Shown one piece after another: positions 11,629 through 61,079 of a stretch of DNA of 64,000 bases (the stretch's first letter is position 1; each line of letters starts with the position of its first letter). A program made the translations under genes and the position numbers. The stretch comes from Gammaproteobacteria bacterium. Lineage in GTDB: Bacteria > Pseudomonadota > Gammaproteobacteria > Eutrophobiales > Eutrophobiaceae. The stretch spans positions 20,820 to 84,819 of the forward strand of contig CBDBPJ010000007.1 of the NCBI GenBank assembly GCA_965208655.1, read 5' to 3'. The notes under the pieces are model-generated. The model saw nothing but the letters and a program-made list of their open reading frames with translations, made no database searches and had not been told where the DNA came from.

Positions 11629-12078
11629 TCACATCCTTACCAGGACGTGGTCCTGTCTGGCTGAAACCTGTTTCACCGAACGCCGCTGGACCAGGTCGGA
11701 CAGGCTGACGGCGCTGAGAAAGTCGGTAATATGCGTGCTCAGGTCTTCCCAAAGGTCATGGGTCAGGCAGCGTTCGTCAGCCTGGCAGTTCTGGTTGCCG
11801 CCGCAACGGGTGGCGTCGACCTGCTCATCCACGACGCGGATCACGTCCGCCACGGAAATATCGGACCGGGATTGCTGCAGGCGGTAGCCCCCGCCCGGAC
11901 CTCTTGAACTGGCTATCAGGCCGCCCTTTCTCAAACGCAGGAATAACTGCTCGAGGTACGCCTGGGAAATGCCCTGCCGCTTGGATATATCCATCAGGTT
12001 GACAGGACCATAACTCTCGTGCAATGCCAGGTCCAGCATGGCTGTAACGGCGTAGCGCCCTTTCGTCGTTAAACGCAT
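11629..12078 (-). CDS. iscR: Rrf2-family Fe-S cluster regulator IscR
   Basis: 149 aa. The N-terminus is Rrf2 HTH ([18 protein letters not shown]). It has the three-Cys cluster ligands ([13 protein letters not shown]) plus a His. It is the first gene of the suf operon. Confidence 0.85.
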
Positions 12079-12117
12079 AACAGGTGTCTCAGCAGGTTAA
12101 GGGGCGCGTATCCTTAC

Positions 12118-12167
12118 ATATCCGACTATTTTAGTCAAGTATATTTTTGACTATTTTAGTCGGGTAT
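12118..12167 (-). promoter_or_regulatory. Two tandem IscR type-1 operator sites in the iscR-suf promoter
   Basis: ATATCCGACTATTTTAGTCAAGTAT (12118-12142) matches the type-1 consensus ATASYYGACTRWWWYAGTCRRSTAT at 24 of 25 positions. ATTTTTGACTATTTTAGTCGGGTAT (12143-12167) matches at 23 of 25. Both lie 40-90 bp upstream of the iscR start. Confidence 0.6.
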
Positions 12168-12189
12168 TCATGATGCCGTGATTAGTTGA

Positions 12190-12798
12190 TTATAAGGAAT
12201 AAGTGTTTCTGTAACGGAATAAATACCAGGAACCGACGCTGCGGTAGGGACGCCAGTTCCCGGCTACTTCCAGAAGCGCCGGCATGTCATCGGGGGAAAC
12301 CCCGTAAGCCGATGCAACTGCCTTTCGTAATGCCAGGTCCTTGACCGGGAATACATCCAGCCGCGCCAGGCCGAACATCAGGTATATATCCACCGTCCAG
12401 TCGCCGATGCCTTTTACCTGCAGCAATTCCCGGCGGATGGTGTCGTCATCTGCCGACTGGAGTTTCACGAGATCCAGGGAGTTGTCGCTGATCTTCCCGG
12501 ACAGGTCCTTGATGTAGACACATTTTCTTGCGGAGAGTCCGGTTGCACGCAGGGCGTTGTCGGGCGTTTCGAGAATACCCCGGGCTGTGATTTTGCCGTC
12601 AGGGTAGAGCGCACGGAAGCGGGCAATTATGGTGTCGGCCGCGGCCGTGGATAACTGTTGGCTGATAATGATGCCGGTCAGGAACTCAAGGTCGGCGCGC
12701 CGCCCTGCCAACCCGCAGGCGCCGATTTCACTGATAATTGTCCCCAGCCGTTTGTCCTTTTTCCGCAGGTAGCCGGTGATATCGGCAAAATCCGGCAT
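12190..12798 (-). CDS. DNA-3-methyladenine glycosylase II-like (HhH-GPD superfamily, AlkA family)
   Basis: 202 aa with HhH-GPD features (LLQVKGIGDWTVDIYLMFGL...D). Confidence 0.65.
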   Translation of the reverse strand: MPDFADITGYLRKKDKRLGTIISEIGACGLAGRRADLEFLTGIIISQQLSTAAADTIIARFRALYPDGKITARGILETPDNALRATGLSARKCVYIKDLSGKISDNSLDLVKLQSADDDTIRRELLQVKGIGDWTVDIYLMFGLARLDVFPVKDLALRKAVASAYGVSPDDMPALLEVAGNWRPYRSVGSWYLFRYRNTYSL

Positions 12799-12873: not shown

Positions 12874-13473
12874 TCAGGTCTGCCCTTTTTGTATATTCCG
12901 GATCATGCGCTCCAGGCGTAGCTGGGGCAGGACCCACTCCGGCGACAGTTCCATGGCCCGGCGATAATCCGCCTCGGCGTTGTCGTAGTCCTTATTGTTC
13001 TCATAAGCCATGGCGCGGTTGAAATGGGCAATGTGGTTTTTCGCCAGGGTCAGTTCAATGGCAGTGGTGTACTGCTGAATCGCCACGTCATATTTCTGGC
13101 TCAGCAGGTAAAGGTTGCCGAGGTTCACATAGACCTCGCCTGTCACCGGTTCCAGTTCAACAGCAGTCCGGTAATCTTTCAGCGCTTTCTGATAATCCTC
13201 CATGGCGCCGTACAGGATGCCGCGATTGACGTAAGTGGCCAACAGGTCCTTGCGGGTCAGCCTGCCATGCAGGATGGCCTGGTTGCACTCCTCGACACTC
13301 TCCTTGCTTGCCGAGTTCAACTGGATGGCCAGGGTGGCAGACATAAAACAGTTACGGGCGTATGAGCCCCCGCCAATGACACTCATCGACTGGGTATAGC
13401 CTGCAACGGGAGAGAATATAAGAACGGGCAGCAACACCCGTAAAATAAACCGAGCTGAGATCATTTTAAGCAC
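12874..13473 (-). CDS. Secreted tetratricopeptide-repeat protein
   Basis: 199 aa with an N-terminal signal peptide and several TPR-like repeats (AxxxYxxAxxLxP pattern). Confidence 0.55.
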   Translation of the reverse strand: MLKMISARFILRVLLPVLIFSPVAGYTQSMSVIGGGSYARNCFMSATLAIQLNSASKESVEECNQAILHGRLTRKDLLATYVNRGILYGAMEDYQKALKDYRTAVELEPVTGEVYVNLGNLYLLSQKYDVAIQQYTTAIELTLAKNHIAHFNRAMAYENNKDYDNAEADYRRAMELSPEWVLPQLRLERMIRNIQKGQT

Positions 13474-13589
13474 CTCTTGAAATACCTGTCTCTTAACCTA
13501 TTAGTATAGATAAAAAAACCAATTCTGCCATGTTATAGTTACCCGCCTTCAACCCTCCAAATTCACAGACACGCGGAAAGAATTGACAA

Positions 13590-14294
13590 ATGATAGATTT
13601 ATACTACTGGCCGACCCCCAACGGCTGGAAAATCTCGATAATGCTGGAAGAGTGCGGACTCGAATACCGGCTGATCCCGGTGGACATCGGGCGGGGAGAC
13701 CAGTTCAAGCCGGAGTTTCTGGCCATCAGCCCCAACAACCGCATGCCGGCCATCGTCGACCATGACGTGGAAGGGGAACCGGTCTCCGTGTTCGAGTCAG
13801 GCGCCATACTGATGTACCTTGCGGAGAAGACCGGGCGTTTTATCCCGGCGGACCCTCGCGCCAGGGTAGACGTCATGCAATGGTTGTTCTGGCAGGTAGG
13901 CGGCCTGGGTCCCATGGCGGGCCAGCTTGGCCACTTTACCAATTACGCTCCCGAGAAAATCCCGTACGCCCTGAGTCGCTATGGCGATGAATACAACCGC
14001 TTGCTGGGCGTCATCGAAAAGCAGTTGGCGGATAAGGACTACCTGTGCGGCGACTATTCCATTGCCGACATGGCCTCCTGGTCCTGGGTAGTGGTGCATG
14101 AGCGGGTGAACCAGAGCCTGGACGGGTTTCCACGCGTCAAGGCCTGGGATGAACGGATGAAAGCCAGACCGGCGGTGGCCGCCGGCAAGGACCTGGGCAA
14201 GGAACTGCGGCGCCGGTTTGAGGACGATGAGGAGGCCCGCAAGGTGCTGTTCGGGCAGACCGCGGCGTCGGTGGCTGAAGTTGCCGGGAGATAG
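13590..14294 (+). CDS. yfcG: Glutathione S-transferase-family disulfide-bond oxidoreductase (YfcG-like)
   Basis: 234 aa. The N-terminus MIDLYYWPTPNGWKISIMLEE...ISPNNRMPAIVDH is very close to E. coli YfcG. Confidence 0.75.
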   Translation: MIDLYYWPTPNGWKISIMLEECGLEYRLIPVDIGRGDQFKPEFLAISPNNRMPAIVDHDVEGEPVSVFESGAILMYLAEKTGRFIPADPRARVDVMQWLFWQVGGLGPMAGQLGHFTNYAPEKIPYALSRYGDEYNRLLGVIEKQLADKDYLCGDYSIADMASWSWVVVHERVNQSLDGFPRVKAWDERMKARPAVAAGKDLGKELRRRFEDDEEARKVLFGQTAASVAEVAGR

Positions 14295-14318
14295 AGAAAA
14301 ATTCAAGCCATTCCGGGC

Positions 14319-14546
14319 TCAAATATCATAATGGGAAATGGTGCCCGAGCGGTTAATCCCGGCTATAAATGGCGCTTTCTCCCGTACAACAAACTTTTGA
14401 ATTCGACTGTGGTATTTCACTAGAATTTCAGCAAGTTCCGGTCCTGTTTGATGTTTTGCGCGGATAACGATCACGCGTGCTCCATACTCTTTAATGGTAC
14501 GTATCTCAGCAGTGCGATATCGGATTTGTTTATCGATAATTTGATG
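14319..14546 (-). pseudogene. Start-less 75-codon ORF remnant of unknown function at the left edge of the AT-rich islet
   Basis: Manual translation gives HQIIDKQIRYRTAEIRTIKEYGARVIVIRAKHQTGPELAEILVKYHSRIQKFVVREKAPFIAGINRSGTISHYDI with no ATG and a stop directly upstream. It reads as coding-like but is unassignable. Confidence 0.25.
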
Positions 14547-14577
14547 TCAAATTACATACCTCAGCCAAGCCTAACAT

Positions 14578-15537
14578 CTAGGAGTCAATATATGGAATAT
14601 TGGAACGGCGAACATTTATTTCTAGCCCCTTTGACATTCGTAAACGATTAACGCTGTGAAAGCGGACATCCTGATAAGCCCCAGGCCCAATAATAATACC
14701 CTCAATGCAATCTAATAAGGCTTCAGATGGAGGGGGCGTCTTGATATATGGCACGAGCATGCCGTTCTTATTATAAAATTGAATATCATCAAAGGGTTCA
14801 GCAATAAGAGAACTCATTCGACATTCGCGCTCTTCGGAAAAATGGTTGTTTTTTGTTAGCAACCGATACATTAAATACCTTTGTATTGCTTCCCCAGCCA
14901 AAGGAGGTGAAAAAATTATTGAAGCCAAGTCAATCTGTTCGTTAGCTTGTATTTGCTCCTCTTCTTGATAGGCCTTATATTTTAGATAATTCATATAAAT
15001 CTCTAGGTATACATCTTTATACTCTAGTACTTGCTCCTTCAGTGAATTGTCTAGGACATAATGAACATCGTTTAATAAGTAACTATATCTTTTCGTTTTG
15101 TTATTAGTATTTTCTATCCATTTCATCAACTTGGACCGGGAAAACTGCAACGCATAGCCGCCTTTTCTGCCGTAACCCCGCCATTGGCTAAGCAAACCAT
15201 CTTGGAAGTCTTTTTCCGTAGTTTTACAGAAGCAGGTTATGTAAATTTGCAGAATGTTCATAGTAGCTTTGAAAAATAGACTTTCGAATTTGTTTGCATG
15301 GTGAGTGATATTATTTCCACGCTTCTGGAATATATTTACAAACTCGTGCTCTGCAAGTACCAAGACTAATGTTTGCTCATTGAAAATCTTGGTCAAAATT
15401 CCTTCTCCAGTATTCAATTCAGATACATCACTGGTAGTAAAGTATGCAGTGCTCCATATTTCACCCTGTGACAATATTCCCAGTAAGCCTGCCGTATCCG
15501 TATAGTGGAATATGGCATCATTAGTATAAGTGGCCAT
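14578..15537 (-). CDS. DUF2971-family protein
   Basis: 319 aa and AT-rich. The N-terminus IFHYTDTAGLLGILSQGEIWSTAYFTTSDVSELNTGEGIL matches the characteristic DUF2971 opening (hYTs...LlgIL..g.lW.s......ND..E). It is recalled from memory, not searched. Confidence 0.45.
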   Translation of the reverse strand: MATYTNDAIFHYTDTAGLLGILSQGEIWSTAYFTTSDVSELNTGEGILTKIFNEQTLVLVLAEHEFVNIFQKRGNNITHHANKFESLFFKATMNILQIYITCFCKTTEKDFQDGLLSQWRGYGRKGGYALQFSRSKLMKWIENTNNKTKRYSYLLNDVHYVLDNSLKEQVLEYKDVYLEIYMNYLKYKAYQEEEQIQANEQIDLASIIFSPPLAGEAIQRYLMYRLLTKNNHFSEERECRMSSLIAEPFDDIQFYNKNGMLVPYIKTPPPSEALLDCIEGIIIGPGAYQDVRFHSVNRLRMSKGLEINVRRSNIPYIDS

Positions 15538-15650
15538 AAGTTTTCTTATCTGTTCCGTTCCTCAACCAAAAAAACAGTAGTCGCCCCCACAGTTGGGTCA
15601 GGCAAAATATTGAACTTAAAGATCAGAGAATTTGCCTAGATAATTCTCAC

Positions 15651-15941
15651 TTACCCATGCAACGCCCGAACAGCATGTTCCGGGTCTACATCCAGGATTC
15701 TCAGCAGAGCCTTAGCCGGTCCAGTCGGATGCCGGCGCCCTTGTTCCCAGTTTTCCAGCGTCCGCTTGCTGACGCCGATTAACATAGCAAATTGATTCTG
15801 GCTCAGTCCGATTTTTTTCCGGATCATCTTGGCCTCTGGTTCCGGAAATTTTGTGACCCTGGCAGCCGCTTTTTTTCCTTGGACAATTTCGTCCATTTCC
15901 TGAACGCTGGCCAACAATTCATTAAACAGTTCATTTTTCAT
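15651..15941 (-). CDS. higA: XRE/COG2944-type HTH antitoxin (HigA-like)
   Basis: The motif IGLSQNQFAMLIGVSKRTLENWEQGRRHPTGPAKALLRIL is the COG2944 antitoxin signature. It overlaps the upstream toxin gene. The start is taken at the internal MKNELF. Confidence 0.7.
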   Translation of the reverse strand: MKNELFNELLASVQEMDEIVQGKKAAARVTKFPEPEAKMIRKKIGLSQNQFAMLIGVSKRTLENWEQGRRHPTGPAKALLRILDVDPEHAVRALHG

Positions 15942-16254
15942 CTGTCCACCTCTCAACTATCGATTTCAGTTCTTTCACTTGTTCAGACGTTAGATCTTCC
16001 TGTTTAGTCTTTTGGTAAATGTACAGCATGTATATCTGCTCATTTTTCGTCATCCAGTAGTAAATCACCCTGACGCCACCGCTCTTCCCCCGTCCTTCAT
16101 GCTTCCAGCGGACTTTTCTCAGTCCTCCAGTGCCTTGAATAATGTCGCCCATGCCTGGGCGATTTACCAAGGCTTCCTGAAGCTCCCTATACTCCTCATC
16201 GCTCATCAATTCTTTGATACGCCGTGTAAAGATACGGGTTTCTATGATTACCAT
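15931..16254 (-). CDS. higB: Gp49/HigB-like RelE-superfamily toxin
   Basis: 107 aa. KSGGVRVIYYW...IYMLYIYQKTKQEDLT is the PF05973-type toxin signature. The gene is in toxin-then-antitoxin order with 15651-15941. Confidence 0.7.
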   Translation of the reverse strand: MVIIETRIFTRRIKELMSDEEYRELQEALVNRPGMGDIIQGTGGLRKVRWKHEGRGKSGGVRVIYYWMTKNEQIYMLYIYQKTKQEDLTSEQVKELKSIVERWTDEK

Positions 16255-16544
16255 GATTGCTAATTGTACGTCAAAGGCGTATATTGTCCAAGTTGATTCC
16301 TGATGGTCAAGACATAATTGTTATAATTTTGTTCAATCAATATTAACTGCAGGTAGATATCCGCTAGACTAGCTGGCAAGGCGGTAGTCGCCAGGTGACT
16401 GACAGATCGGAATTTCTTGATTGCTTCGGTGATAAATTTTATCTGTTCGTGGTACTGAACTCCATCGAACCGGTTCAGTTCCAGGAGGTTTGAAACAGGG
16501 AGACTAATAATATTTCCCGGATAAGGTCAGATTAGTATTCAATT

Positions 16545-16832
16545 ATGAAAAATATCACGACAGATAACATCTTTGAGGATATCGGTTTCGACAAACAGGA
16601 GGCCGCCAACATGAAAGTTCGTGCGGAATTACTGCTGGAAGTCCGAGAGCATATTCGTAAGATAGGCTTCAAGCAGAAAGAAGCCGATGCCTTGCTAGGG
16701 ATCAACCAATTTGAAGTCAGCGCACTGATGAATGGTCATATCTTCAATTTCAGTATTGATGCGCTGGTGAATATGCTTGCCAGGGTAGTGCGGGAACTGA
16801 AAATTACAACACAGCCAAAAAAGGCGATTTGA
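16545..16832 (+). CDS. XRE-family HTH antitoxin-like protein (NIFEDIGF motif class). No intact partner toxin lies upstream.
   Basis: 95 aa. MKNITTDNIFEDIGFDKQEAANMKVRAELL...LGINQFEVSALMNGHI matches HigA-type antitoxins that normally follow a ~90 aa RelE/HigB toxin. The 290 bp upstream has no ORF in any frame. Confidence 0.6.
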   Translation: MKNITTDNIFEDIGFDKQEAANMKVRAELLLEVREHIRKIGFKQKEADALLGINQFEVSALMNGHIFNFSIDALVNMLARVVRELKITTQPKKAI

Positions 16833-16911
16833 GTTGTGTACTTCATCTATACAGACCAACTAGGTTTTAAATAAGCTTCTATGAATCAAGAAATAATGAG
16901 TAGAGAGATGA

Positions 16912-17580
16912 TTGAGAATGGATAGTTGGTGGCAATTAGGAGAGGGTTATGGGGCTCATGGCAGAAAACTCGCGGTATACCAAATTACATGTGCATTCTG
17001 TATGGAAGAGGGAAATTTCGAGACTGTGTTTCATGCCGAAAAGAAAAAACCAAATTCCGACAAGAAATTGAACTTCGATACCCTTGAGTGTGGAAACTGT
17101 AAAGGGTACGTAATGGTAATTTGGTCTGCTGGTGACTATCACGGAGACCTTCATAACTACAGAGTTCTGCCATACCCTTTGAAATTAGAAAAGTTTCCTG
17201 AGCATTGGCCAGAAGCTGTCGGTCGATACTGGCTCCAAGCAAAACGTAATATACGAGATGAAAATTGGGATGCTGCCGCTGTAATGGCGCGAAGTGCTTT
17301 GCAAATCGCACTTAGAGACAACAAAGCTGAAGGGAAAAACCTAAAGCAAGAAATTGATGATCTAGCCGAGAAGGGTACCTTGCCGCCGATTATGAAAGAT
17401 TGGTCCAATCATGTTCGCGATTTAGGTAATGATTCGGCGCATCCACAACCAGAGCAAGATCCAACGAATCCACAAGATGCACGGGACATGGTTGGCTTTC
17501 TAGATTTCTTACTGGAGTATCTATATACACTTCCTCATCGTATCAGTCAGTATCGGGGCCGTGGAAATGAAGAAGAATGA
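16912..17580 (+). CDS. Zn-ribbon plus DUF4145 domain protein
   Basis: 222 aa. The N-terminal CxxC...CxxC pairs are CAFC (27-30) and CGNC (60-63). The C-terminal region (ARSALQIALRD...NHVRDLGNDSAHP) resembles DUF4145, the domain also found at the HsdR C-terminus and in Abi-like proteins. Confidence 0.5.
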   Translation: MRMDSWWQLGEGYGAHGRKLAVYQITCAFCMEEGNFETVFHAEKKKPNSDKKLNFDTLECGNCKGYVMVIWSAGDYHGDLHNYRVLPYPLKLEKFPEHWPEAVGRYWLQAKRNIRDENWDAAAVMARSALQIALRDNKAEGKNLKQEIDDLAEKGTLPPIMKDWSNHVRDLGNDSAHPQPEQDPTNPQDARDMVGFLDFLLEYLYTLPHRISQYRGRGNEEE

Positions 17581-17916
17581 ACTGTAGAGTTTGGCTCTGC
17601 CGTAATATAAATATTTGTTAGGTGTGTGATTCATAGACATCCTTTCAACTAACTGATGACCTCTCCCCACAGCACTGTTCGTAATATTGAAGAGATCAGG
17701 CCACTTCTCGACAGGCAGTATATTTTTGACATTTTTGATTTTTATATAACCTAAATTTTGTTGGGATAATCGTTGGGCAAAGATCAGAAAGTAATATAAA
17801 TTACATTAAAAACAACAGGTTATTCGCCCAGTCATATTCCCCCTTCCAGCACCAATTTCCTGAATAAAATCAGGAATTCTTGTAGTGCACCTTGGTTATT
17901 CCATTCCGCCCTTGTC

Positions 17917-18222
17917 GCTCAAATTAGCGGGTCCACTATTTCGACCCCGGTATTCTCGAAATCCCGCCGGTTACGGGTTGCGAACTGCAGTCCATGGGTA
18001 AGTGCAGTTGCAGCAATCAGACTGTCCTTGACTGTCATCGGTTTTCCGATGGAGCGCAGATACGCGAGGAGTTCTGCCCAAGGTAACCCCGTCTCAACAT
18101 CCCATGATATACAAATACTACGCCTTGTTATTTCATCAAACCAGTGTTCGGGTTCCCGACGTCGCCGGCCGTGTAGCCTTACACAACACGTTGGTAGCGA
18201 TAAGACTCGTCACGATGGTCAT
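17917..18222 (-). pseudogene. vapC: Degraded vapC (PIN-domain toxin): frameshifted, internally deleted, first catalytic Asp replaced
   Basis: Manual translation: the ATG overlaps the vapB stop (ATGA). The N-terminus reads MTIVTSLIATNVL (LDTNV becomes IATNV) and ends after 28 codons. The conserved C-terminus ...DSLIAATALTHGLQFATRNRRDFENTGVEIVDP continues in another frame. The total is ~95 rather than ~130 codons. Confidence 0.5.
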
Positions 18223-18455
18223 CCAACCGTGTCGGTAGACTCCGATTCTATAGGCACAAACCAGGCCTTAACCGGACACGCAAGGAGTGTATCAATCAAC
18301 CTCAGGTTCTTCGGGGACTCGGCAACTACCAGGTGGTATTCGCCTCTGTCCACGCGCTCAATATCATATGCTTGATCGGCCTCGTTCTTGTCCTGATTGC
18401 TAAAATCGGCTGGTATGACGATCTGGCCTTTCGATGAAATGATAGTCTTCTTCAT
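18219..18455 (-). CDS. vapB: AbrB/SpoVT-family antitoxin VapB
   Basis: 78 aa from the internal Met: MKKTIISSKGQIVIPADF... is a swapped-hairpin antitoxin signature. It lies upstream of the vapC remnant. Confidence 0.6.
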   Translation of the reverse strand: MKKTIISSKGQIVIPADFSNQDKNEADQAYDIERVDRGEYHLVVAESPKNLRLIDTLLACPVKAWFVPIESESTDTVG

Positions 18456-18583
18456 ATCGGGTAAGTTAACGTCCCATACCGGTATTATCAAGATTCTGGT
18501 CAGGAACAAATCCCGAATATCCCGTTGACAGCTTTGAGATGGGAGGGAGATAATCGTAGTGTAATTAATTGGAAGAATGACAC

Positions 18584-18823
18584 ATGTCAACTATTACCAT
18601 CCATACGACCGACGAGGTTTCAACCAAGCTGAACCGGCTTGCAAAGGTGATGAACAAATCAAGGGATCAGGTAATTGAAGTTGCATTAAAGCAATATATT
18701 TCAGAGCAATCCGATCAAATTGCAGGTATTGAGCAGGCACAATTATCACTTGCAAAAGGCGCCGGTAAAGATTTTGACACGGTCGTCGAGGAACTACGTA
18801 ACAAAATCCGACACAAGCAATAG
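18584..18823 (+). CDS. parD: Ribbon-helix-helix (CopG/ParD-like) antitoxin
   Basis: 79 aa. MSTITIHTTDEVSTKLNRLAKVMNKSRDQVIEVAL has an RHH fold pattern. It is divergent from vapB and followed by a parE-like ORF. Confidence 0.6.
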   Translation: MSTITIHTTDEVSTKLNRLAKVMNKSRDQVIEVALKQYISEQSDQIAGIEQAQLSLAKGAGKDFDTVVEELRNKIRHKQ

Positions 18824-18833
18824 TAAGGAATAA

Positions 18834-19004
18834 ATGAAAATAAGGATTTCGCCGGAAGCAGAACAGGATTTAATCGAAATCTTTGATTACATCATCACAG
18901 ATAACCCGCTTGCTGCCAAAAAAACACTGGACGTGCTTTATAGTGAGATTCGTCACCTCAGTAATCATCCTGCGCATCTACCATTCAGCCAACAAATGGC
19001 CTGA
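18834..19004 (+). pseudogene. parE: Truncated ParE/RelE-family toxin (56 codons; the C-terminal half is missing)
   Basis: MKIRISPEAEQDLIEIFDYIITDNPLAAKKTLDVLYSEIRHLSNHP is a ParE N-terminus. The stop comes after 56 aa, and the next gene's convergent stop is only 36 bp beyond. Confidence 0.55.
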
Positions 19005-19040
19005 TGGCTTTGACTGAATAACGACATGAAATCAATCGTT

Positions 19041-20273
19041 TTAAACCAGATCATCATCCAGTAACTCCGGCTTCAACCCATACGCCAGTATCTGCGCGAA
19101 TTTCCTTTGCACAAAGGCAGACCTGGACAGGATGCGCATGGGCAACGGCAGTTGAAACGGCTTATCGGATTTCAGCGCGCCGGCAATGATGCGGTTCTGA
19201 ATAAACCGTTGCAGTTGCTGGATGAAAGCAACTGCCGGCTCGCGGCGTCTCTGCACTTCGGCAAGGTCATTTTCTGATACGGTTCCTTGCACAAGGTGCG
19301 GGGTCAGGACGTTTGCCGCCGACACCGCGTCCTGGATGGCGTAGTTTATACCGACCCCGCCTACGGGCGACATGACGTGGGCCGCATCGCCGATCAACAG
19401 CAGTCCGGGTCGATGCCATTGTTCCACCCTGCCGGTGAGCACCGATAAAATGGCGCATTGCGACCAGTCCTGCAGGATGGAGAATGCGCCCTTCAGTTCC
19501 GGAGCGATTTCTGCCAGCTGATCCCTGAAGGCGCCGAGACCCGCTTTACGGAATTCCCGGTACGATCCTTTCAGGATGATAAAACCCGCCTGCCAATGAT
19601 CTCCCCGGTCAATAATGATCAGCATGGTGCCCGCGCCGAAACGCGCCTGCAAGCCGCCAGCCAGCTTGCTGTTTTCCGGGACCGGTAATTTAAACCACAA
19701 CACGTCCATGGGTGGCGAGGTACGGCAGAGTTCCATGCCCGCCTGCTGTCTGACCGCGGAATTGCGGCCGTCTGCCGCGACGACCAGGTGGGCGGGGATG
19801 CTTTTCGATTCGTCGTTGTGTACGCATTTTATCCCGATGGTTTGATCGCCTGTCTTCAGCAGTTCCGTAAATGTGGCGTTAATCCATAGCCGGAAATCAG
19901 GATACTGCTTTGCCTCCTCAACCAGCCGTTCCAGGAAGCGGGCCTGGGGGACCAGCGCGATGTATGGGTACGCCGTCTTCAGACGGGTAAAATCAGCCAT
20001 TGTCACCAGGCCGCGAGCCGTGCCGAATCGGGCTTTCTCTATCCTTGAATTACTGAGTTCCAGGATGGGTTCGGCCAGGTTCAACTGGGCAAGTATTTCC
20101 ATGGAATAGGCATGCAGGGTATCGCCGCGGAAATCACGGTCGAAGTCCGGCTGTGATTCGACCAGGGTAAGGGGTATCCCGTTTCTCGCCAGGATCAAGG
20201 CCAGCACCACACCTGCCGGTCCTGCCCCGACGATGCATACATGGTTACCGGCTGTTTCCCCGAATTCGGTCAT
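19041..20273 (-). CDS. FAD-dependent monooxygenase (UbiH/COQ6/kynurenine-monooxygenase-like fold)
   Basis: 410 aa. The N-terminal GxGxxG motif is VCIVGAGPAGVVLALILARNGIPLTLVE. Internal DG and GD FAD motifs are present. Confidence 0.75.
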   Translation of the reverse strand: MTEFGETAGNHVCIVGAGPAGVVLALILARNGIPLTLVESQPDFDRDFRGDTLHAYSMEILAQLNLAEPILELSNSRIEKARFGTARGLVTMADFTRLKTAYPYIALVPQARFLERLVEEAKQYPDFRLWINATFTELLKTGDQTIGIKCVHNDESKSIPAHLVVAADGRNSAVRQQAGMELCRTSPPMDVLWFKLPVPENSKLAGGLQARFGAGTMLIIIDRGDHWQAGFIILKGSYREFRKAGLGAFRDQLAEIAPELKGAFSILQDWSQCAILSVLTGRVEQWHRPGLLLIGDAAHVMSPVGGVGINYAIQDAVSAANVLTPHLVQGTVSENDLAEVQRRREPAVAFIQQLQRFIQNRIIAGALKSDKPFQLPLPMRILSRSAFVQRKFAQILAYGLKPELLDDDLV

Positions 20274-32627: not shown

Positions 32628-34124
32628 CTAGTCTTGCTGCTCGTATTGCTGGATCAGGTACTGGACCAGCAGCGGGACCGGGCGTCCTGTTGCGCACTTG
32701 TTTTTCCCGCTCACCCAGGCAGTCCCGGCGATATCAAGATGCGCCCATTGGTATTGTTTTGCGAACTTGGCCAGAAAACAGGCGGCAGTGATTGTCCCGG
32801 CCTCACGCCCGCCTATGTTTGCCATGTCGGCAAACGGGCTTTCCAGCTGTTTTTCGTATTCATCCCAGATCGGCAGTTGCCAGGCCCGGTCCCCGGCTGT
32901 CTGTCCCGCCTGCAAGAGATCGGCCGCGAGCGGATCATGGTTGCTCAGGAGTCCAGTGGCGTGTTTGCCCAGGGCTACCACGCAGGCGCCGGTGAGTGTG
33001 GCAATATCGATCACTACGGCCGGTTCAAACCGCTTGCTGTAAGTCAGGGCATCGCACAGTATCAGGCGGCCCTCGGCATCCGTGTTCAATACTTCTATGG
33101 TCTGGCCGGACATGCTGGTAAAGACATCGCCGGGTTTGGTCGCAGTGCCGCTGGGCATGTTCTCTACCGCCGGGGTCACGCCCACCAGGTTGATGGGCAG
33201 TTCCATCCCGGCAACCGCGGCGACCGCGCCGAATACCGACGCAGCGCCGCACATGTCGAATTTCATCTCGTCCATTGCCGACGAGGGTTTGATTGATATT
33301 CCCCCGGTGTCAAAGGTGACGCCTTTCCCCACCAGGACCACGGGCTTGCTGCCGTTCCCTGCACCCTGGTAGCGGAAGATAATCAGTTTTGCCGGCTGGG
33401 CGCTGCCCTGCGATACGGACAGCAGGGAGTGCATGCCCAGTTCTTCCATTTCCTGTTCCTCGACAACCGTCACCTCAACGGATGTAAACGCGTTACCGAG
33501 TTCTTCAGCCTGTTCGGCGAGATAAGTCGGCGTACAGGCGTTGGCGGGCCGGTTGCCCAGGTCGCGCGCCAGCTTGACGCCCGCGGCCAGCGCAACACCT
33601 CTTGAGAGCGCGGATCCGCATTGGGCCAGTTCTTCCCGGGGGACCATCAGGGTTATCTTGCGCAGGGTTTTTTTGCTGTCTTTCTTTGCGCTCTTGAAGT
33701 CTTTGAACTGGTAGAGTTCGTGATCCGTGAACTGCACCGCGTACTGTATTTTCCAGCGGTAATCCCGGTCTTTCACATCCAGGCCGGGGATGTAACTGAC
33801 CGCTTCACGCGCGCCGGTCTGTTTTATCTGCCTGATGCTGTTAACGACGATTTTCCGGTACTGCCTGTGATCCAGGTCAGCCTCTTTGCCGCAGCCGACC
33901 AGCAGCACCCGCTCAGCCGGGATACCGGGCACATTGTGCAATAGCAGGGACTGGCCGATTTTCCCGTCCATATCGCCCTTGCGCAGCAGGTTTGACAGGT
34001 ACTTGTCGCCGGCGTCATCTATGGCCTGCGCCGCGGGTGTCAATTTGCGCGACTCATGCACCCCTGCCACCAGGCATGCACTGCGCTGTTTTTCGGGACT
34101 TCTGCTTTTAATGTGGAATTCCAT
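32628..34124 (-). CDS. pepA: Leucyl aminopeptidase (M17)
   Basis: 498 aa with the NTDAEGRL motif and M17 family conservation. Confidence 0.9.
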   Translation of the reverse strand: MEFHIKSRSPEKQRSACLVAGVHESRKLTPAAQAIDDAGDKYLSNLLRKGDMDGKIGQSLLLHNVPGIPAERVLLVGCGKEADLDHRQYRKIVVNSIRQIKQTGAREAVSYIPGLDVKDRDYRWKIQYAVQFTDHELYQFKDFKSAKKDSKKTLRKITLMVPREELAQCGSALSRGVALAAGVKLARDLGNRPANACTPTYLAEQAEELGNAFTSVEVTVVEEQEMEELGMHSLLSVSQGSAQPAKLIIFRYQGAGNGSKPVVLVGKGVTFDTGGISIKPSSAMDEMKFDMCGAASVFGAVAAVAGMELPINLVGVTPAVENMPSGTATKPGDVFTSMSGQTIEVLNTDAEGRLILCDALTYSKRFEPAVVIDIATLTGACVVALGKHATGLLSNHDPLAADLLQAGQTAGDRAWQLPIWDEYEKQLESPFADMANIGGREAGTITAACFLAKFAKQYQWAHLDIAGTAWVSGKNKCATGRPVPLLVQYLIQQYEQQD

Positions 34125-34218
34125 GATATTCTGTGCGCTGTGTGTGTGAAAAAATCAGGTGATGAATATTATCTGATAACCGGCATCAAAACCAGCCATG
34201 TTATTTACTTCGTGCTAA

Positions 34219-35316
34219 ATGATCCTGCGACGTTATATTCATAGAGAAATAGTTGAGAAACTCGGCTGGATCATCGGCCTTCTGTTGCTGATTATTACCA
34301 GCAACCGTTTTGTCAGATACCTGGCAGATGCCGCGGCAGGGACGTTTCCTACCGACCTGGTGTTCCAGACGTTACTCATGAAAATGCTGACTACGCTGCC
34401 GAAGCTGATGCCCATCGCCGTATTCCTGGCGGTCATTCTCGGGTTGTCAAGACTGGCCCGTGACAAGGAATTGACCGCGCTGTCGGTATCCGGCGGCGCG
34501 CGCAGGGTTGAACTCGTATCGGTGTTGCAGTTTGCCTTCATGTTTTCCCTGATTGTATTTGCCACCAGTTTTTATATTTCGCCCTGGGCCGCGCAAAATA
34601 CGGCAGAACTTCGGGCAAGGGCTGAACAGGAAACGGATACGGCCGGCATCGGGGCAGGTAAATTTACCGAGATGAGCAAGGGAGAGCAGGTCATCTATAT
34701 AGAGCAGTCATCCGGCGACGGAAACCGGATGGACAATGTTTTTCTGCAGGCCAAGCAGGGCCGGCAGACCAGTGTGATAAATTCCAGCAGCGCACGTTAC
34801 CGGCACGTGGACTCTTCCGGCGATAAGTTCATCCTGTTCGAGGACGGCCGGCGTTATACAGGCGCATCGGACTCGCTGGACTACCGTATCACCCGCTACA
34901 AGACTTACGCGGTCCTGGTAGAGCAGAACGATGAAGCGAGAGAATTCGTCAAGCTGGAGTCAGTGCCTACGTCGACGTTACTGGGTTCCGACAGCCCGAA
35001 ACACGAGGCCGAGTTACAGTGGCGACTCTCGTTTGTCATATCATCCCTGTTGCTGCCCGCGCTGGCGGTCGCCCTGAGTCGTTATTCGTTCAGCGAACAG
35101 AAGTACCTGTCCGCATTTGTCGCGGTACTGATCTATGTGATTTACAGCAATATGCTGGGCGTCGCGAAAACCCTGTTGAAAAGAGATGAGATTCCGGGAT
35201 ACATCGGTTTATGGTGGGTGCACCTGGCGTTGCTCGTACTGATCTTCCTGATGTTCCAGTTTCCGAAGTTCAGGTTGAGGATGAAGCAATTCAGCACCGG
35301 GCCGGTTGCCGGGTAA
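34219..35316 (+). CDS. lptF: LPS export ABC permease LptF
   Basis: 365 aa. MILRRYIHREIVEKLGWI is an LptF start. It is divergent from pepA. Confidence 0.85.
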   Translation: MILRRYIHREIVEKLGWIIGLLLLIITSNRFVRYLADAAAGTFPTDLVFQTLLMKMLTTLPKLMPIAVFLAVILGLSRLARDKELTALSVSGGARRVELVSVLQFAFMFSLIVFATSFYISPWAAQNTAELRARAEQETDTAGIGAGKFTEMSKGEQVIYIEQSSGDGNRMDNVFLQAKQGRQTSVINSSSARYRHVDSSGDKFILFEDGRRYTGASDSLDYRITRYKTYAVLVEQNDEAREFVKLESVPTSTLLGSDSPKHEAELQWRLSFVISSLLLPALAVALSRYSFSEQKYLSAFVAVLIYVIYSNMLGVAKTLLKRDEIPGYIGLWWVHLALLVLIFLMFQFPKFRLRMKQFSTGPVAG

Positions 35317-35338
35317 TCGATTAGCGGACCGCGGGCTC

Positions 35339-36634
35339 ATGAAAATTATACAGCGGTATTTTATCCTCAACCTGGTCTGGACCACTTTTCTCAGCCTGGC
35401 GGTCCTGGTCGGGATATTTGCGTTCCTGTCGCTCATCGACCAGCTTGAAGATTCCGGGCAGGGAAATTACGGCACGTACCAGGCGGTCATTTACGTGCTT
35501 CTGACCCTGCCGCGCCTGGCCTATGAAATCATTCCGATCGCGGCGATGATCGGAGGCATGACGAGTCTTGCGTTACTGGCCAGAAACAGTGAACTCGACG
35601 TGATCAGGCTTTCCGGCGTCTCGGAATATTCCCTTGCCGTGCTGATGGGAAAATCAGCCCTGGTCATCGTATTGTTCTCAATCTTCGTCGGCGAGTTCGT
35701 CGTGCCGGCCAGCGAAAAAAAAGCCAGGTATCAACGGTCCATCGCCCTGACTGAGCAGGTCGCCATGAGGACAAAATACGGTTTCTGGGCAAGGGATGGA
35801 AACAGTTTCATCAATATCCGCAAAATCCTGCCCGGGAATGTAATCGAGGACATATATATCTACGAGTTTGATGATCAGGACCGGTTGCGCAACAGTATTT
35901 TTGCGAATAATGCGCGCTATGTCGATGACAGGTGGGTGCTCGAGGAGGTGGAAAGGACAGTTTTTGACGGTAGCGGGGTCACGCGGGAGCAATACCGGAG
36001 GGCAGCCTGGGAGTCATGGGTCAATGACGACCTGATCAACCTTGTCATCATCAACCCCTTGTACATGTCCATATGGAACCTGTCCAACAGCATCCGGGTG
36101 TTAAAATCGAACTCACAAAACACGGATTCCTACGAGCAGGCCTTTTACGCAAAACTGATCAGGCCATTCACAATCGTCGCCATGATTGTCCTTTCCATCC
36201 CGCTGGTTGCCGCGCGCCACCGCAAAGGCGGGTTGGGACAACATGCTTTCAGCGGTGCGCTGATAGGCGTGATTTTCTATTTTATAAACTCTGCATCCGG
36301 TCACGTCGGCATAGTCTACGGCGTTCATCCGTTCATCAGCGCGGCTATTCCGACCCTGGTGCTGTTCCTGGTTTTATTCTGGTTGTTTTTCCGGCAACAA
36401 CCAGCGCTGTTCCCGAAAACCGATCATGGAATGCCAGCCGTTCCTTATCAAACAAGACCCAGAGAAACCCAGCTCCAAATCCAGCTAAAGACACGCCGGC
36501 AAGCAAAAACCGCAGTGTCAGCTTTTTCCAGCCGGGTTGAACGCAGTCCGGGGTTGTTAAGTAGATATGCCAGGCGCGCATTCCAAGGGTTTGCCGTCCT
36601 TTTTTCCATTGCCAGACGAAATAGAAATAAGTGA
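35339..36634 (+). CDS. lptG: LPS export ABC permease LptG with an unusual ~75 aa Arg-rich C-terminal extension
   Basis: It starts MKIIQRYFILNLVWTT, like LptG. The frame stays open well past the usual LptG end (~355 aa). It overlaps the convergent RDD gene by 290 nt. Confidence 0.75.
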   Translation: MKIIQRYFILNLVWTTFLSLAVLVGIFAFLSLIDQLEDSGQGNYGTYQAVIYVLLTLPRLAYEIIPIAAMIGGMTSLALLARNSELDVIRLSGVSEYSLAVLMGKSALVIVLFSIFVGEFVVPASEKKARYQRSIALTEQVAMRTKYGFWARDGNSFINIRKILPGNVIEDIYIYEFDDQDRLRNSIFANNARYVDDRWVLEEVERTVFDGSGVTREQYRRAAWESWVNDDLINLVIINPLYMSIWNLSNSIRVLKSNSQNTDSYEQAFYAKLIRPFTIVAMIVLSIPLVAARHRKGGLGQHAFSGALIGVIFYFINSASGHVGIVYGVHPFISAAIPTLVLFLVLFWLFFRQQPALFPKTDHGMPAVPYQTRPRETQLQIQLKTRRQAKTAVSAFSSRVERSPGLLSRYARRAFQGFAVLFSIARRNRNK

Positions 36635-36821
36635 CCAGCAGCAGGTATGCGGAGTACAACAGGTTGCCTGCGGCAAAGGCCTGCCCGCCGGCAACGGGAA
36701 GCGCCAGGACGGTAGCAAGAAACAGCACGGACAACAGCAGAAAGCAGTCATAAAGCATGGCCGCCAGCCTGCGCCACAGGCCTGCAGGCCCGCTTCCGTT
36801 TATTACCACTTGTGTCCGCAT
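36345..36821 (-). CDS. RDD-family membrane protein
   Basis: 158 aa. RRLAAMLYDCFLLLSVLFL is the RDD motif region, with three transmembrane segments. Confidence 0.55.
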   Translation of the reverse strand: MRTQVVINGSGPAGLWRRLAAMLYDCFLLLSVLFLATVLALPVAGGQAFAAGNLLYSAYLLLVTYFYFVWQWKKGRQTLGMRAWHIYLTTPDCVQPGWKKLTLRFLLAGVSLAGFGAGFLWVLFDKERLAFHDRFSGTALVVAGKTTRIKPGTAPGSE

Positions 36822-36913
36822 TACGATATACTGTGGAAATATCTTGGATAGAATCCATTTTCTGTATGTCTAAGGATAAACGGGTTTTAACCAGGTGAGG
36901 TAATTATAGAGCC

Positions 36914-37864
36914 ATGCCTTTGAAAATGCTGTCTCACCGAGTACTGTTTCCCGTATGCTTTTCCATACTTGCATATTTTGCCGGGACAACGTTCCTTATG
37001 GCATCCCCTACCGTGTCGGAAACCGCCATTCCGGGCAGGCTGGTGGATATCGGCGGTTACCGGTTACATATATATTGCCAAGGCAACGGGATGCCCACCA
37101 TTATTTTCGATTCGGGAACGGGCGGCTTCTCGCTTGAATGGACCAGGGTACAGAAAGTCCTGTCGCGCCGGACCCGGGTATGCTCGTACGACCGTGCGGG
37201 CTACGGCTGGAGCGATCTGGGACCGCTGCCAAGGACCAGCGAGCGTATCACCCGGGAGTTGCATACATTGCTGGGAAAGGCTGAAGTGAACGGCCCCTAC
37301 ATCCTTGCCGGGCATTCATTCGGTGGTTACAACGCGCAATTGTTCGCCAGAAATTACCCTGAGGAGACGGCGGGTCTTGTCCTGATCGATGCATCTCATC
37401 CGGAACAGATAGCGCGGTTCCCAAGCCGGGAACCGAAAATCCGCCAGCAGGTGCGGCCGGGGTCGCACACCCATCATATTTTCAGGCTTCTCCTGCATCC
37501 CGACTATCCTGAAGAAAATATGCTGACGGCTCACCGCATCATTCAAAGCTGGCATCACAGGCTGACCTGGCGCGAAGAAATGAATGTATTTACCCTGAGC
37601 GCAAAACAGGTGCTGGCTTCCAGGCCGATGCCGGCCGTGCCCGTTGTCGTGCTCACCCGCGGCCGGCGCGTCTGGCCGCATGACGCCCATGGTAATGAAA
37701 TGGAGCGGGTCTGGATGGAACTGCAGGATGAACTGTCCCAGCTCGGCGCTAACCCGGTGCACCTGATTGCGGAGCGTAGCGGCCACATGATCCACCTGGA
37801 ACAACCGGGGATTGTCATCAACGCCATGCAGACCATGCTGGATGCCAATTTCTCCGGGGAATAA
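36914..37864 (+). CDS. Alpha/beta-hydrolase-fold protein (secreted)
   Basis: 316 aa with a signal peptide and the GHSFGG nucleophile elbow. Confidence 0.7.
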   Translation: MPLKMLSHRVLFPVCFSILAYFAGTTFLMASPTVSETAIPGRLVDIGGYRLHIYCQGNGMPTIIFDSGTGGFSLEWTRVQKVLSRRTRVCSYDRAGYGWSDLGPLPRTSERITRELHTLLGKAEVNGPYILAGHSFGGYNAQLFARNYPEETAGLVLIDASHPEQIARFPSREPKIRQQVRPGSHTHHIFRLLLHPDYPEENMLTAHRIIQSWHHRLTWREEMNVFTLSAKQVLASRPMPAVPVVVLTRGRRVWPHDAHGNEMERVWMELQDELSQLGANPVHLIAERSGHMIHLEQPGIVINAMQTMLDANFSGE

Positions 37865-37910
37865 CGGGTGAAAAAGAGGAAACACATCCCTGTCTCCGAC
37901 TTTTGATTTG

Positions 37911-52942: not shown

Positions 52943-53108
52943 AATCGATCCGGGAGTCTAATAAATCACGAACATTCGATCAAGAAAGGGCAGGCTGCCA
53001 ACCTCGACCGAACCATTCCACCCAACGCTTCTACCCGGCAAAAGTTATTTTAAAAGCACTTTTAATTGTGTATTTTATATTGATATTCACATTGGAGACG
53101 AGCTTACC

Positions 53109-53357
53109 ATGGAGACCCTTCTGACCAACAAGACCGTATCGGTAACCGAGCTACGCGAACCCAGGAAAGTCATTGACAAGGCAGGCTCCAAACCTGTGGC
53201 AGTTCTCAATCGTTCGAATGTGGTGGGGTACTTCGTCCCGGCGAGTGCCGTGGAAAAACTTGATTTCAGTGTGTGCGAAACAGACGAAGTGATGGCTGCG
53301 CTGGACACTCTCGATGATAACGCACTGGCGGTGAACGACTACCTCAAAGACAAGTGA
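53109..53357 (+). CDS. phd: Phd/YefM-family antitoxin
   Basis: 82 aa. TVSVTELREPRKVIDKAGSKPVAVLNRSNVVGYFV is a Phd/YefM signature. Its stop overlaps the doc start. Confidence 0.7.
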   Translation: METLLTNKTVSVTELREPRKVIDKAGSKPVAVLNRSNVVGYFVPASAVEKLDFSVCETDEVMAALDTLDDNALAVNDYLKDK

Positions 53358-53752
53358 TGCGCTATATCACGGCTGAGCAAGTCGTTGCCATACATGAACG
53401 AGTAATATTGCGTGACGAGTTACAGGGCATAGTGAGCGAGCGACCTGTTGAGGCCGTGAATGGCAGGATCGAAAACCGCCTTGCCTATGGACTTATCGGT
53501 GATGTTTATGAGCTTGCCGCCTGTTACGCCTGCTATATTGCCGTCGGCTACTGCTTTCACGATGCCAATAAACGAACCGCGCATACGGCCATGCAGGTCA
53601 TCCTGAAACTGAATGGTATTCAGCTTGAGTACGATATAAAAACCCTTGGTGATATGGTCATAAAAGCAGCCCAGGGTATCGTCGAGGAAACGGAGCTTGC
53701 AGCTTTTCTCCGACGTAGCAGGGCGAAAGGCAATATTCATGATCGCCGTTGA
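53354..53752 (+). CDS. doc: Doc (death-on-curing) Fic-family toxin
   Basis: 132 aa. The Fic motif is HxFx(D/N)(A/G)NKR, seen here as FHDANKRTAH. Confidence 0.8.
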   Translation: MMRYITAEQVVAIHERVILRDELQGIVSERPVEAVNGRIENRLAYGLIGDVYELAACYACYIAVGYCFHDANKRTAHTAMQVILKLNGIQLEYDIKTLGDMVIKAAQGIVEETELAAFLRRSRAKGNIHDRR

Positions 53753-53815
53753 TTGAAACCGGTCATTGAATTTCTACTGGGCCACGGGATTTAATTTGTT
53801 AATACCAAAGTGAAT

Positions 53816-53902
53816 TGGTGCCGGGAGAGAGACTCGAACTCTCACTCTGTTGCCAGAACCGGATTTTGAATCCGGCGCGTCTACCAGTTCCGCCACCCCG
53901 GC
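53816..53902 (-). tRNA. tRNA-Leu (anticodon CAA)
   Basis: The reverse complement GCCGGGGTGGCGGAACTGGTAGACGCGCCGGATTCAAAATCCGG...GGTTCGAGTCTCTCTCCCGGCACCA has a long variable arm and an encoded CCA. It resembles E. coli leuX. Confidence 0.85.
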
Positions 53903-53980
53903 TTTGCTGAGGAAATAAAGGGCCGGCAAGTATAACAGAAAACATGGTTTGCCTTGCGTTTCTTGTTAGACTCAACAGCC

Positions 53981-56144
<2,164 letters not shown>

Positions 56145-60991: not shown

Positions 60992-61043
60992 CAGTGCAGA
61001 TCAGGCGCGGGCTGATACCACTTCGAAATATAGTTTTTATTAA

Positions 61044-61079
61044 ATAGCGATCTCAACACTTAAACGTTAAGATCGCTAT
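61044..61079. promoter_or_regulatory. 10 bp perfect inverted repeat (ATAGCGATCT ... AGATCGCTAT) abutting the ATG of the AAA_21 ATPase gene
   Basis: The arms are at 61044-61053 and 61070-61079. The 16 nt spacer contains the palindrome AACGTT. The element overlaps the expected RBS. Confidence 0.45.

Follow-up and report, generated by a model that had tools for sequence, protein, structure and literature searches.

A low-GC islet of toxin–antitoxin and putative defence genes, RAZR-like and DUF2971 among them, at a convergent core-gene junction in an uncultured gammaproteobacterium

The DNA analyzed here is a stretch of 64,000 nt from an uncultured member of the Gammaproteobacteria (family Eutrophobiaceae; contig CBDBPJ010000007.1, positions 20,820 to 84,819, assembly GCA_965208655.1). 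In the following it is called the window, and coordinates are positions of this window unless another contig is named. Between a glutathione S-transferase (GST) gene and a FAD-monooxygenase gene, the window contains an islet of ~4.7 kb (14295–19040) that is rich in toxin–antitoxin (TA) and putative defence genes. This islet is a real, horizontally acquired insertion of foreign composition and a mosaic at an integrase-free variable site. It is probably best understood as a horizontally acquired collection of autonomous small modules lodged between two convergent core genes, and not as one machine. The biochemical activities and the anti-phage role ascribed to its genes below are predictions.

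The insertion is evident from base composition. The GC content of the islet is 0.426 (42.6%), compared with 0.568 (56.8%) for the remaining 59 kb. Non-overlapping segments of the same size elsewhere in the window have a mean GC content of 0.567 with a standard deviation (SD) of 0.014 and a minimum of 0.533, which places the islet approximately 10 SD below them and makes it the strongest drop in the window. The GC content at third codon positions (GC3) amounts to 0.36–0.58 for the islet genes, compared with 0.67–0.78 for the genes on its flanks (GST, FAD-monooxygenase and O-methyltransferase). Furthermore, the modules of the islet differ among each other (DUF2971 0.38; higBA 0.45–0.50; vapBC 0.49–0.53; parDE 0.42), which suggests several sources. 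The left breakpoint coincides with the stop codon of the plus-strand GST gene (14292–14294) and the right one with the stop codon of the minus-strand FAD-monooxygenase gene (19041–19043). Since these two genes converge, the islet occupies a 3′–3′ intergenic spacer. A first-pass annotation, made by reading the sequence alone, had proposed an AT-rich islet of ~4.7 kb with a sharp GC drop between these two genes, and it was correct on the drop and, to within a few bases, on the borders (stop codons 14294/19041).

Further evidence comes from related genomes. Scanning a genome collection with the FAD-monooxygenase protein yielded four uncultured Gammaproteobacteria, all of them metagenome-assembled genomes (MAGs; L001–L004), in which the amino acid identity of this protein is 92–93% (L001 and L002) or 78% (L003 and L004). 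A blastn comparison of window positions 5001–30000 with these four loci revealed that the flanks of the islet are collinear, syntenic core in the relatives. According to blastn and alignments, homology stops at 14275–14297 and restarts at 19043–19054. For L003 and L004 it stops at 14275/14297 and restarts at 19043/19054, and the gap between the GST and the FAD-monooxygenase genes of these two MAGs measures only 64–105 bp. This is the ancestral empty site. Alignment to related genomes therefore defined the boundaries as well as the empty site, and a conserved core region of the same GC content is not what the relatives have at this position.

The sequence of L002 ends within the monooxygenase gene and is uninformative on the site. 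Of the relatives that are informative here, L001 is the closest. It carries 8.6 kb of different cargo at the same site (L001 11231–19837), namely a czcCBA-like RND metal efflux operon (AcrB-family RND pump, HlyD-type adaptor and outer-membrane factor) as well as genes for a BlaR1/M48-like peptidase and a Penicillinase_R (BlaI-like) repressor. The presence of metal-efflux and regulator genes at this position shows that the site exchanges cargo of quite different function. Common to L001 and the islet are only higA-2 (93% nucleotide identity) and vapB (83%), both of them toxin-less in L001, and the part of the islet made up of these two genes predates the split from L001. In L001, vapB and higA-2 are separated by a spacer of 228 bp that contains a 26-nt match (E=0.003) to window positions 17757–17782, part of the non-coding stretch that separates the RAZR-like gene from the vapC pseudogene. 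This relic weakly suggests that L001 once had the segment with higB-2, HTH_37, the RAZR-like gene and vapC and lost it by deletion. With the two toxin genes gone and the two antitoxin genes left in place, a loss of this kind should be tolerated.

At the left border, a terminator-like hairpin (14301–14324) is located directly after the GST stop codon and, on the other strand, after the stop codon of the PIN_10 remnant. It partly resembles the empty-site sequence of L004 ('TCAAGCC'). The hairpin may be the ancestral GST terminator, in which case the true left junction would be situated near 14325.

The mosaic nature of the islet is apparent from a block of 2.2 kb (15677–17849), bounded by the 3′ end of higA-2 and by non-coding DNA past the RAZR-like gene, that is 95% identical to three metagenome contigs (L081–L083). 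These contigs are otherwise unrelated, have 44% GC overall and carry insertion sequence (IS) transposases together with further TA and defence-type genes. In two of them (L081 4613–7024 and L082 4520–6829), the HigA-2-type helix-turn-helix (HTH) domain forms the N-terminus of a 769–803-aa HTH_3-FRG-TPR protein. The fused HTH domain is 93% identical to the antitoxin of the window, and its gene is found directly downstream of a HigB-2 toxin gene. This fusion to FRG-TPR implies a recombination breakpoint at the end of the HTH domain. Such an unusually large 'antitoxin' might couple the TA module to a sensor. L081–L083 lack counterparts of the DUF2971 gene, parDE and the PIN_10 fragment, and the islet consequently consists of at least three to four independently sourced pieces. 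The first-pass annotation had called it an old, eroding insertion. The insertion is confirmed by the empty site in L003 and L004, and erosion by the damage to three of the four toxin genes (PIN_10, vapC and parE). 'Old' can be upheld in a relative sense only, because GC3 is unameliorated and the block is 95% identical to contigs of 44% GC.

In agreement with the first-pass annotation, no integrase and no tRNA was found at the borders by domain, tRNA and Rfam scans. Profile scans of the islet open reading frames (ORFs) detected no integrase or recombinase domain, tRNA and Rfam scans gave no match within about 18 kb of the islet (the nearest tRNA is at 37910), and no flanking direct repeats were found at the islet borders. 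With regard to the canonical features of integrative islands, the islet has the atypical composition and the empty site, and it lacks the integrase, the tRNA/att target and the direct repeats. An acquisition independent of a recombinase, into a spacer between convergent genes where insertions spare promoters, would fit a combination of homologous and illegitimate recombination. Low-GC donor DNA may have been acquired without the involvement of any site-specific recombinase. Its cargo may then have been swapped or deleted, with homologous recombination acting via the conserved flanks and illegitimate recombination within the islet. The features of the islet are listed in Table 1.

Table 1. Positions and characteristics of the islet and its genes in the 64,000-nt window.
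Feature	Positions	Strand	Characteristics
Whole low-GC islet	14295–19040	no strand	spacer delimited by the stop codons of GST and FAD-monooxygenase (convergent genes)
PIN_10/DUF5615-type toxin remnant	14319–14546	minus	start-less; C-terminal ~75 aa only
DUF2971 protein	14578–15537	minus	intact, 319 aa; PF11185; 960-nt ORF; candidate Aristaios-type single-gene abortive infection effector
HigA-2/NadS-type HTH antitoxin	15651–15941	minus	96 aa from ATG at 15941; ORF extends to TTG at 15956
HigB-2-type RelE-family toxin	15931–16254	minus	intact, 107 aa; upstream of and overlapping the antitoxin gene
XRE-type HTH_37 regulator/antitoxin	16545–16832	plus	orphan, 95 aa; PF13744 3.2e-17; without cognate toxin
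RAZR/PD-T7-4-like protein	16912–17580	plus	intact; Cys4 zinc ribbon and DUF4145/HEPN; 669-nt ORF
vapC pseudogene (PIN)	17919–18222	minus	two frames: 28 N-terminal codons (18222–18136) and 87 C-terminal codons (18182–17919)
vapB-like antitoxin	18219–18455	minus	intact, 78 aa; AbrB/SpoVT-like 'SSKGQIVIP' motif; stop overlaps vapC start
ParD-like ribbon-helix-helix antitoxin	18584–18823	plus	intact, 79 aa; RHH_1 23.2 bits vs cut-off 20.5
Truncated parE	18834–19004	plus	56 aa, N-terminal half; ParE_toxin 33.4 bits, profile 1–46 of 89

From left to right, the genes of the islet are oriented − − − − + + − − + +. The DUF2971 gene, the HigB-2/HigA-2 pair and the RAZR-like gene are intact. The gene content given in the first pass (DUF2971, a higB/higA pair, an orphan XRE gene, a Zn-ribbon/DUF4145 gene, vapB with a degraded vapC, and parD with a truncated parE) was recovered completely.

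The first of the two defence candidates is the product of the RAZR-like gene. PD-T7-4 was discovered by Vassallo et al. 2022 (PMC9519451) and has since been renamed RAZR (E. coli UMB1727; Zhang et al., Nature 2026; PMC13017515). RAZR combines a Cys4 zinc finger with a DUF4145/HEPN RNase domain, in which R146 and H154 are catalytic. It surrounds phage ring proteins (portal, Gp77) as a 24-mer and then cleaves single-stranded RNA (ssRNA) non-specifically, leading to abortive infection, and in E. coli it acts as a single gene (PMC13017515). The gene in the window likely starts with the ATG at 16918, which gives a protein of 220 aa (220–222 aa). It matches PF13643 (DUF4145) with E=2.1e-18 and 66.6 bits (cut-off 23.1), and the PADLOC profile of PD-T7-4 matches it (PDLC04109; E=1.4e-12, 45.6 bits; residues 24–213 on positions 13–190 of the 211-position profile). 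The protein has only four cysteines, C27-x2-C30 and C60-x2-C63 (CxxC-x29-CxxC), and these are invariant among 32 homologs, as are R169 and H177. R169-x7-H177 aligns column for column with R146-x7-H154 of the RAZR chain in PDB 9y9c, which is matched with E=0.005 by the single sequence (phmmer) and with E=7.2e-7 by a profile of the subfamily. The AlphaFold2 (AF2) model (pLDDT 82) consists of a beta-rich N-domain with a four-stranded beta unit (residues 36–86) and a helical C-domain, for which Foldseek retrieved the HEPN structures 1o3u (prob 1.00), 1wol and 7ae6. The last of these also served as HEPN comparator in the RAZR paper (PMC13017515). Ahead of the zinc ribbon and outside the PADLOC PD-T7-4 alignment, an invariant N-terminal W6-W7-x2-G10-E11 ('SWWQLGEG' segment) is found. 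The protein thus has the Cys4 zinc ribbon, the DUF4145/HEPN domain, the Arg/His pair and the match to the family profile that characterize RAZR and, judged by genomic evidence, the single-gene arrangement. It represents a distant, separately conserved subfamily of RAZR/PD-T7-4.

This subfamily comprises more than 1000 members with 70–95% identity in Desulfobacterota, Verrucomicrobiota, Gammaproteobacteria and other groups. Synonymous sites in the family are saturated, dN is 0.08–0.2 and dN/dS, where computable, 0.04–0.16; the combination of saturated dS and low dN points to strong purifying selection. For a defence protein, the subfamily is remarkably conserved. On viral contigs, seven relatives of the DUF4145 protein and two of the DUF2971 protein were found, and these low numbers indicate that neither protein is predominantly phage-borne. 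By homology to RAZR, the zinc ribbon of the protein would bind large phage rings such as portals. Binding to the ring would drive assembly of a curved higher-order oligomer and thereby turn on the HEPN (Rx7H) RNase, which would then cut ssRNA non-specifically, so that translation stops and infection is aborted.

The second candidate is the DUF2971 protein. Its membership in PF11185 is certain (E=1.7e-10, 42.6 bits vs a cut-off of 22), and no other domain is present in its 319 aa. DUF2971 has been assigned to the ADP-ribosyltransferase (ART) superfamily, near DarT and AbiGi, its conserved features being a Tyr in motif II and an ExE motif (PMC12522546). One member, Aristaios (pUCCL641_199), is a DUF2971-only protein of 316 aa from a lactococcal plasmid that constitutes a single-gene abortive infection (Abi) system (Grafakou et al., NAR 2024; PMC11381338). 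Homologs of the window protein number 488, nearly all of 318–330 aa. Invariant among them are F10-H11-Y12-T13, G114-L-L-S-Q-W-R-x-Y122, Y128 and E236-x-E238 (here E236-R-E238). In the AF2 model (pLDDT 88.6, pTM 0.85), H11-Y12-T13 lies on strand 8–13 and E236-R-E238 at the start of strand 238–245. By position rather than by structural superposition, these residues would correspond to the motif II Tyr and the motif III ExE of ARTs. The best Foldseek matches in the PDB are DarT structures (7omv/7omw/7omy, prob 0.94–0.82, E ~0.01–0.03), followed by the ART-fold Tpt1. These matches are compatible with an ART fold but stay below a strict threshold, and the predicted fold and motifs of a DarT-like ADP-ribosyltransferase are moderately supported.

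A DarG-like partner was found neither beside the gene, where the neighbors are the PIN_10 fragment and higA-2, nor as a conserved feature of the homolog loci, and because no DarG is present, the protein does not qualify as a member of DarTG. Instead, its homologs stand alone beside type I/IIG restriction-modification, AbiE, dCTP-deaminase-like or transposase genes. PADLOC returned nothing significant for the protein (PDC-S31, E=0.005). A tblastn search of plasmids revealed no Aristaios-like lactococcal genes. The DUF2971 genes found by this search have ~25% identity and are mostly enterobacterial, and some are located on Paenibacillus and Streptomyces plasmids. With respect to activity and target, the protein may be an ADP-ribosylating, stand-alone Abi protein. 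Most likely it would act as an effector that ADP-ribosylates DNA or an essential protein upon infection, as proposed for Aristaios. The first-pass annotation had suspected uncharacterised anti-phage genes in the islet. Two intact candidates are indeed present, but 'uncharacterised' does not apply to their families, each of which has an experimentally studied representative (RAZR 2026 and Aristaios 2024).

Besides these two genes, the islet contains an apparently functional type II TA system of the HigBA-2 type. The toxin matches PF06296 (3.6e-9) and, over residues 2–106, PDB HigB-2 5ja9 (1.7e-27). The antitoxin is supported by NF041265 NadS (67.3 bits vs a cut-off of 60), HTH_3 (1.4e-10) and PDB HigA-2 9tv9_A (2.6e-10; 9tv9_A/5jaa ~1e-10). 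The two ORFs overlap by 11–26 nt, and a promoter-like site is found at 16290–16263. HigB-2 would be a ribosome-dependent mRNA interferase with HigA-2 as the cognate HTH antitoxin, and as an addiction module the pair would make loss of the block costly. PADLOC returned nothing significant for HigB-2, ParD and ParE. Translations of the region upstream of HTH_37 (16255–16544) revealed no ORF and no recognisable toxin remnant.

The remaining TA modules are decayed. The ORF at the left edge, recognized in the first pass as a start-less remnant, matches residues 78–147 of the 148-aa protein P0241 (80% identity, E=3.7e-26; exhaustive HMMER), and P0241 and its relatives match PF18478 PIN_10 at 1e-15 to 1e-21. 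From this alignment to PIN_10/DUF5615 toxins, the ORF is the C-terminal half of a toxin gene. The vapC pseudogene is frameshifted, has lost its middle part and has Ala at the position of the first catalytic Asp; PIN (PF01850) is matched by the C-terminal part only and below cut-off (E=0.003), so that the intact PIN toxin with catalytic acidic residues that defines VapBC is missing. The vapB product is 75% identical (amino acids) to that of the orphan copy beside the FAD-monooxygenase gene in L001. It gave no match in Pfam, NCBIfam, PHROG or PDB, and comparison with the second vapB of the window was not significant. Its family name consequently derives from the motif and from its position next to the PIN remnant only. 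ParD matches the CopG-family ribbon-helix-helix structure 6xrw_B (E=0.02), and a sigma-70-like promoter (11/12) is located at 18525–18554. The truncated toxin seen at the right edge in the first pass is ParE, of which PDB 6x0a_A is matched at residues 17–62 of 108. Its ORF ends 36 nt before the FAD-monooxygenase stop codon, no continuation was found in other frames, and the full-length ParE of ParDE is absent. These three modules (PIN_10 remnant, vapB/vapC pseudogene and parD/truncated parE) have lost toxin function while keeping an antitoxin or a fragment. The antitoxin genes left without a partner (vapB, parD and HTH_37) may have been retained for anti-addiction or may be neutral leftovers.

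Several points weigh against the interpretation as a mosaic of autonomous, partly functional modules. Similarity of the RAZR-like protein to E. coli RAZR is weak and limited to the HEPN half, the zinc ribbon being matched only via the PADLOC profile. Compared with the closest RAZR-like copy, dN/dS is 0.43, a value derived from only 19 changes, and selection on the gene may have been relaxed recently. The link between the DUF2971 protein and ARTs is statistically weak (Foldseek E=0.011, TM 0.30/0.43), and since an alignment profile searched against the PDB gave no ART or DarT match, the fold search is the sole link. DUF2971 itself is a very large and diverse family (>10,000 members), most of it without known function. 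Finally, the proposed mode of insertion is deduced from the absence of recombinase signatures.

A rival explanation is a non-functional scrapyard, i.e., the decaying stump of a larger mobile element, such as an integrative and conjugative element, a prophage or a plasmid, whose mobility genes were deleted and which confers no phage protection. Its intact ORFs would simply be those that decay has yet to reach. The degraded toxins, the truncation of both edge genes and the several orphan antitoxins would be expected in this case. In addition, L001 seems to have deleted the segment from higB-2 to the RAZR-like gene without replacement, keeping the 26-nt relic, and the elevated dN/dS towards the nearest RAZR-like copy points in the same direction. 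Nevertheless, we regard this explanation as unlikely. Measured against hundreds of homologs, the two longest ORFs (960 and 669 nt) are not shortened, and none of their invariant catalytic residues has been lost. HigBA-2 is intact, and the family-wide dN/dS of 0.04–0.16 indicates constraint. Moreover, the 4.7 kb contain no detectable trace of phage structural, conjugation or integrase genes.

A more far-reaching version of the mosaic interpretation would regard the site as an integrase-independent hotspot of cargo exchange in this lineage. The retained vapB and higA-2 would then serve as anti-addiction insurance and, at the same time, as homology anchors for the swap or deletion of segments with toxin or defence genes, and the WWQLGEG segment would give the RAZR-like protein a trigger specificity other than that of E. 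coli RAZR. Taken together, these propositions are speculative and quite unlikely to hold.

Alternatively, the 2.2 kb block of higA-2/higB-2, HTH_37 and the RAZR-like gene could be one co-regulated composite in which the TA pair and/or HTH_37 gates the RNase. The block is contiguous and conserved at 95% in the unrelated 44%-GC contigs L081–L083. Within it, only 79 bp separate the RAZR-like gene from the co-oriented HTH_37 gene upstream, higB-2 and HTH_37 flank a divergent promoter region, and HTH_37 weakly matches the PADLOC candidate component PDC-M64C (3.3e-5). However, among 66 other loci whose upstream sequence exceeds 450 bp, the DUF4145 gene is a solo gene in 64, without a homolog of HTH_37 or HigB-2 and in varying neighborhoods, and the remaining two are near-identical copies of the block (L081–L083). 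HTH_37 was therefore rejected as conserved partner of the DUF4145 gene. Given that the RAZR-like gene also stands alone in L084–L092 and that RAZR of E. coli acts on its own (PMC13017515), such a composite appears highly improbable. A relic array of integron gene cassettes, small, AT-rich and TA-rich arrays known to store defence genes including PD-T7-4, would account for the small genes, the TA density, the low GC and the presence of HigBA-2, a classic TA system of the V. cholerae superintegron, and a preprint on defence cassettes in sedentary integrons mentions PD-T7-4, but this origin was rejected as extremely improbable because no attC-like hairpins (imperfect short inverted repeats, looked for without a dedicated attC model) were found at the gene boundaries, the genes have mixed orientations, intI and attI are lacking and the flanks are syntenic core.

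Elsewhere in the window, a second small low-GC insertion of ~820 bp was noticed at 22200–23024. It carries a vapB/vapC pair on the minus strand (genes 22204–22602 and 22599–22850). This pair is intact, with an AbrB-like VapB of 83 aa and a VapC of 132 aa that has a PIN-like N-terminus ('VDTNVL'). The block is absent from all four relatives, in which about 50 bp or less separate the same flanking genes. Window positions 25198–25782 and 28678–28830 gave secondary blastn matches of 85–87% to second positions in L001, a hint of paralogous or repeated sequence downstream. Milder GC dips (0.49–0.53) were observed at 12000–12400, 13200–13800, 24000–25000, 34000–37000, 53000–54000 and 61000–62000. The dip at 53–54 kb adjoins a tRNA-Leu(CAA) gene (53816–53902) and could mark another acquired segment.

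Every component of the islet belongs to a described family, namely RAZR/PD-T7-4, DUF2971/Aristaios-type ART, HigBA-2, VapBC, ParDE and PIN_10. With it, an uncultured gammaproteobacterium from the environment joins those in which a small TA/defence islet free of recombinases is found, and a reading of the sequence alone sufficed to place it within a few bases and to name its contents correctly. The islet draws attention to a large (>1000 members) environmental subfamily of RAZR, the zinc-finger RNase characterised recently, that is very strongly conserved, as well as to a putatively DarT-like DUF2971 protein that lacks DarG. Both genes are cloneable candidates for examining how far the mechanisms of RAZR and Aristaios generalise.

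When compared with known systems, the RAZR-like protein resembles RAZR in being a single protein of ~220 aa with an N-terminal Cys4 zinc ribbon, a linker, a C-terminal DUF4145/HEPN domain and the Rx7H spacing, encoded by a stand-alone gene. It differs in belonging to a separate, highly conserved subfamily with the extra conserved N-terminal 'SWWQLGEG'. The DUF2971 protein is similar to Aristaios in length (~316–319 aa), in having one DUF2971 (PF11185) domain, possibly in its predicted ADP-ribosyltransferase fold, and in its stand-alone gene in mobile or defence contexts. In contrast to the Firmicutes plasmid gene of Aristaios, it is located on a gammaproteobacterial chromosome, and the likeness is one of domain and length, with sequence identity probably being low. 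With DarT of DarTG from Thermus sp. 2.9 (PDB 7omv), the best structural match of the model, it would share an ART core with a conserved ExE-type motif, whereas its size (319 aa vs ~210 aa), its large helical inserts and the lack of an adjacent DarG macrodomain antitoxin set it apart.

The HigB-2/HigA-2 pair corresponds to HigBA-2 of V. cholerae (5ja9, 5jaa) in the full-length match of the toxin, the HTH match of the antitoxin, the toxin-first order and the overlapping ORFs. Unlike the V. cholerae pair, it is part of a chromosomal islet and not of an integron cassette, and the related HTH domain in L081 and L082 is fused to an ~800-aa FRG-TPR protein.

With regard to the islet as a whole, integrase-free variable defence hotspots between conserved core genes have been described for the pangenomes of Pseudomonas and E. 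coli. The present site differs from these in that, among the four related MAGs compared, its status as a hotspot rests on one alternative occupant, whose cargo is metal efflux and regulators and not defence. It agrees with them in its fixed flanks, in being empty or filled with other cargo in relatives, in its low GC content, in its richness in TA and defence genes and in being free of recombinases. Defence islets rich in TA genes that occupy variable intervals of the core genome are a familiar pattern, and the islet described here is in line with the current understanding.

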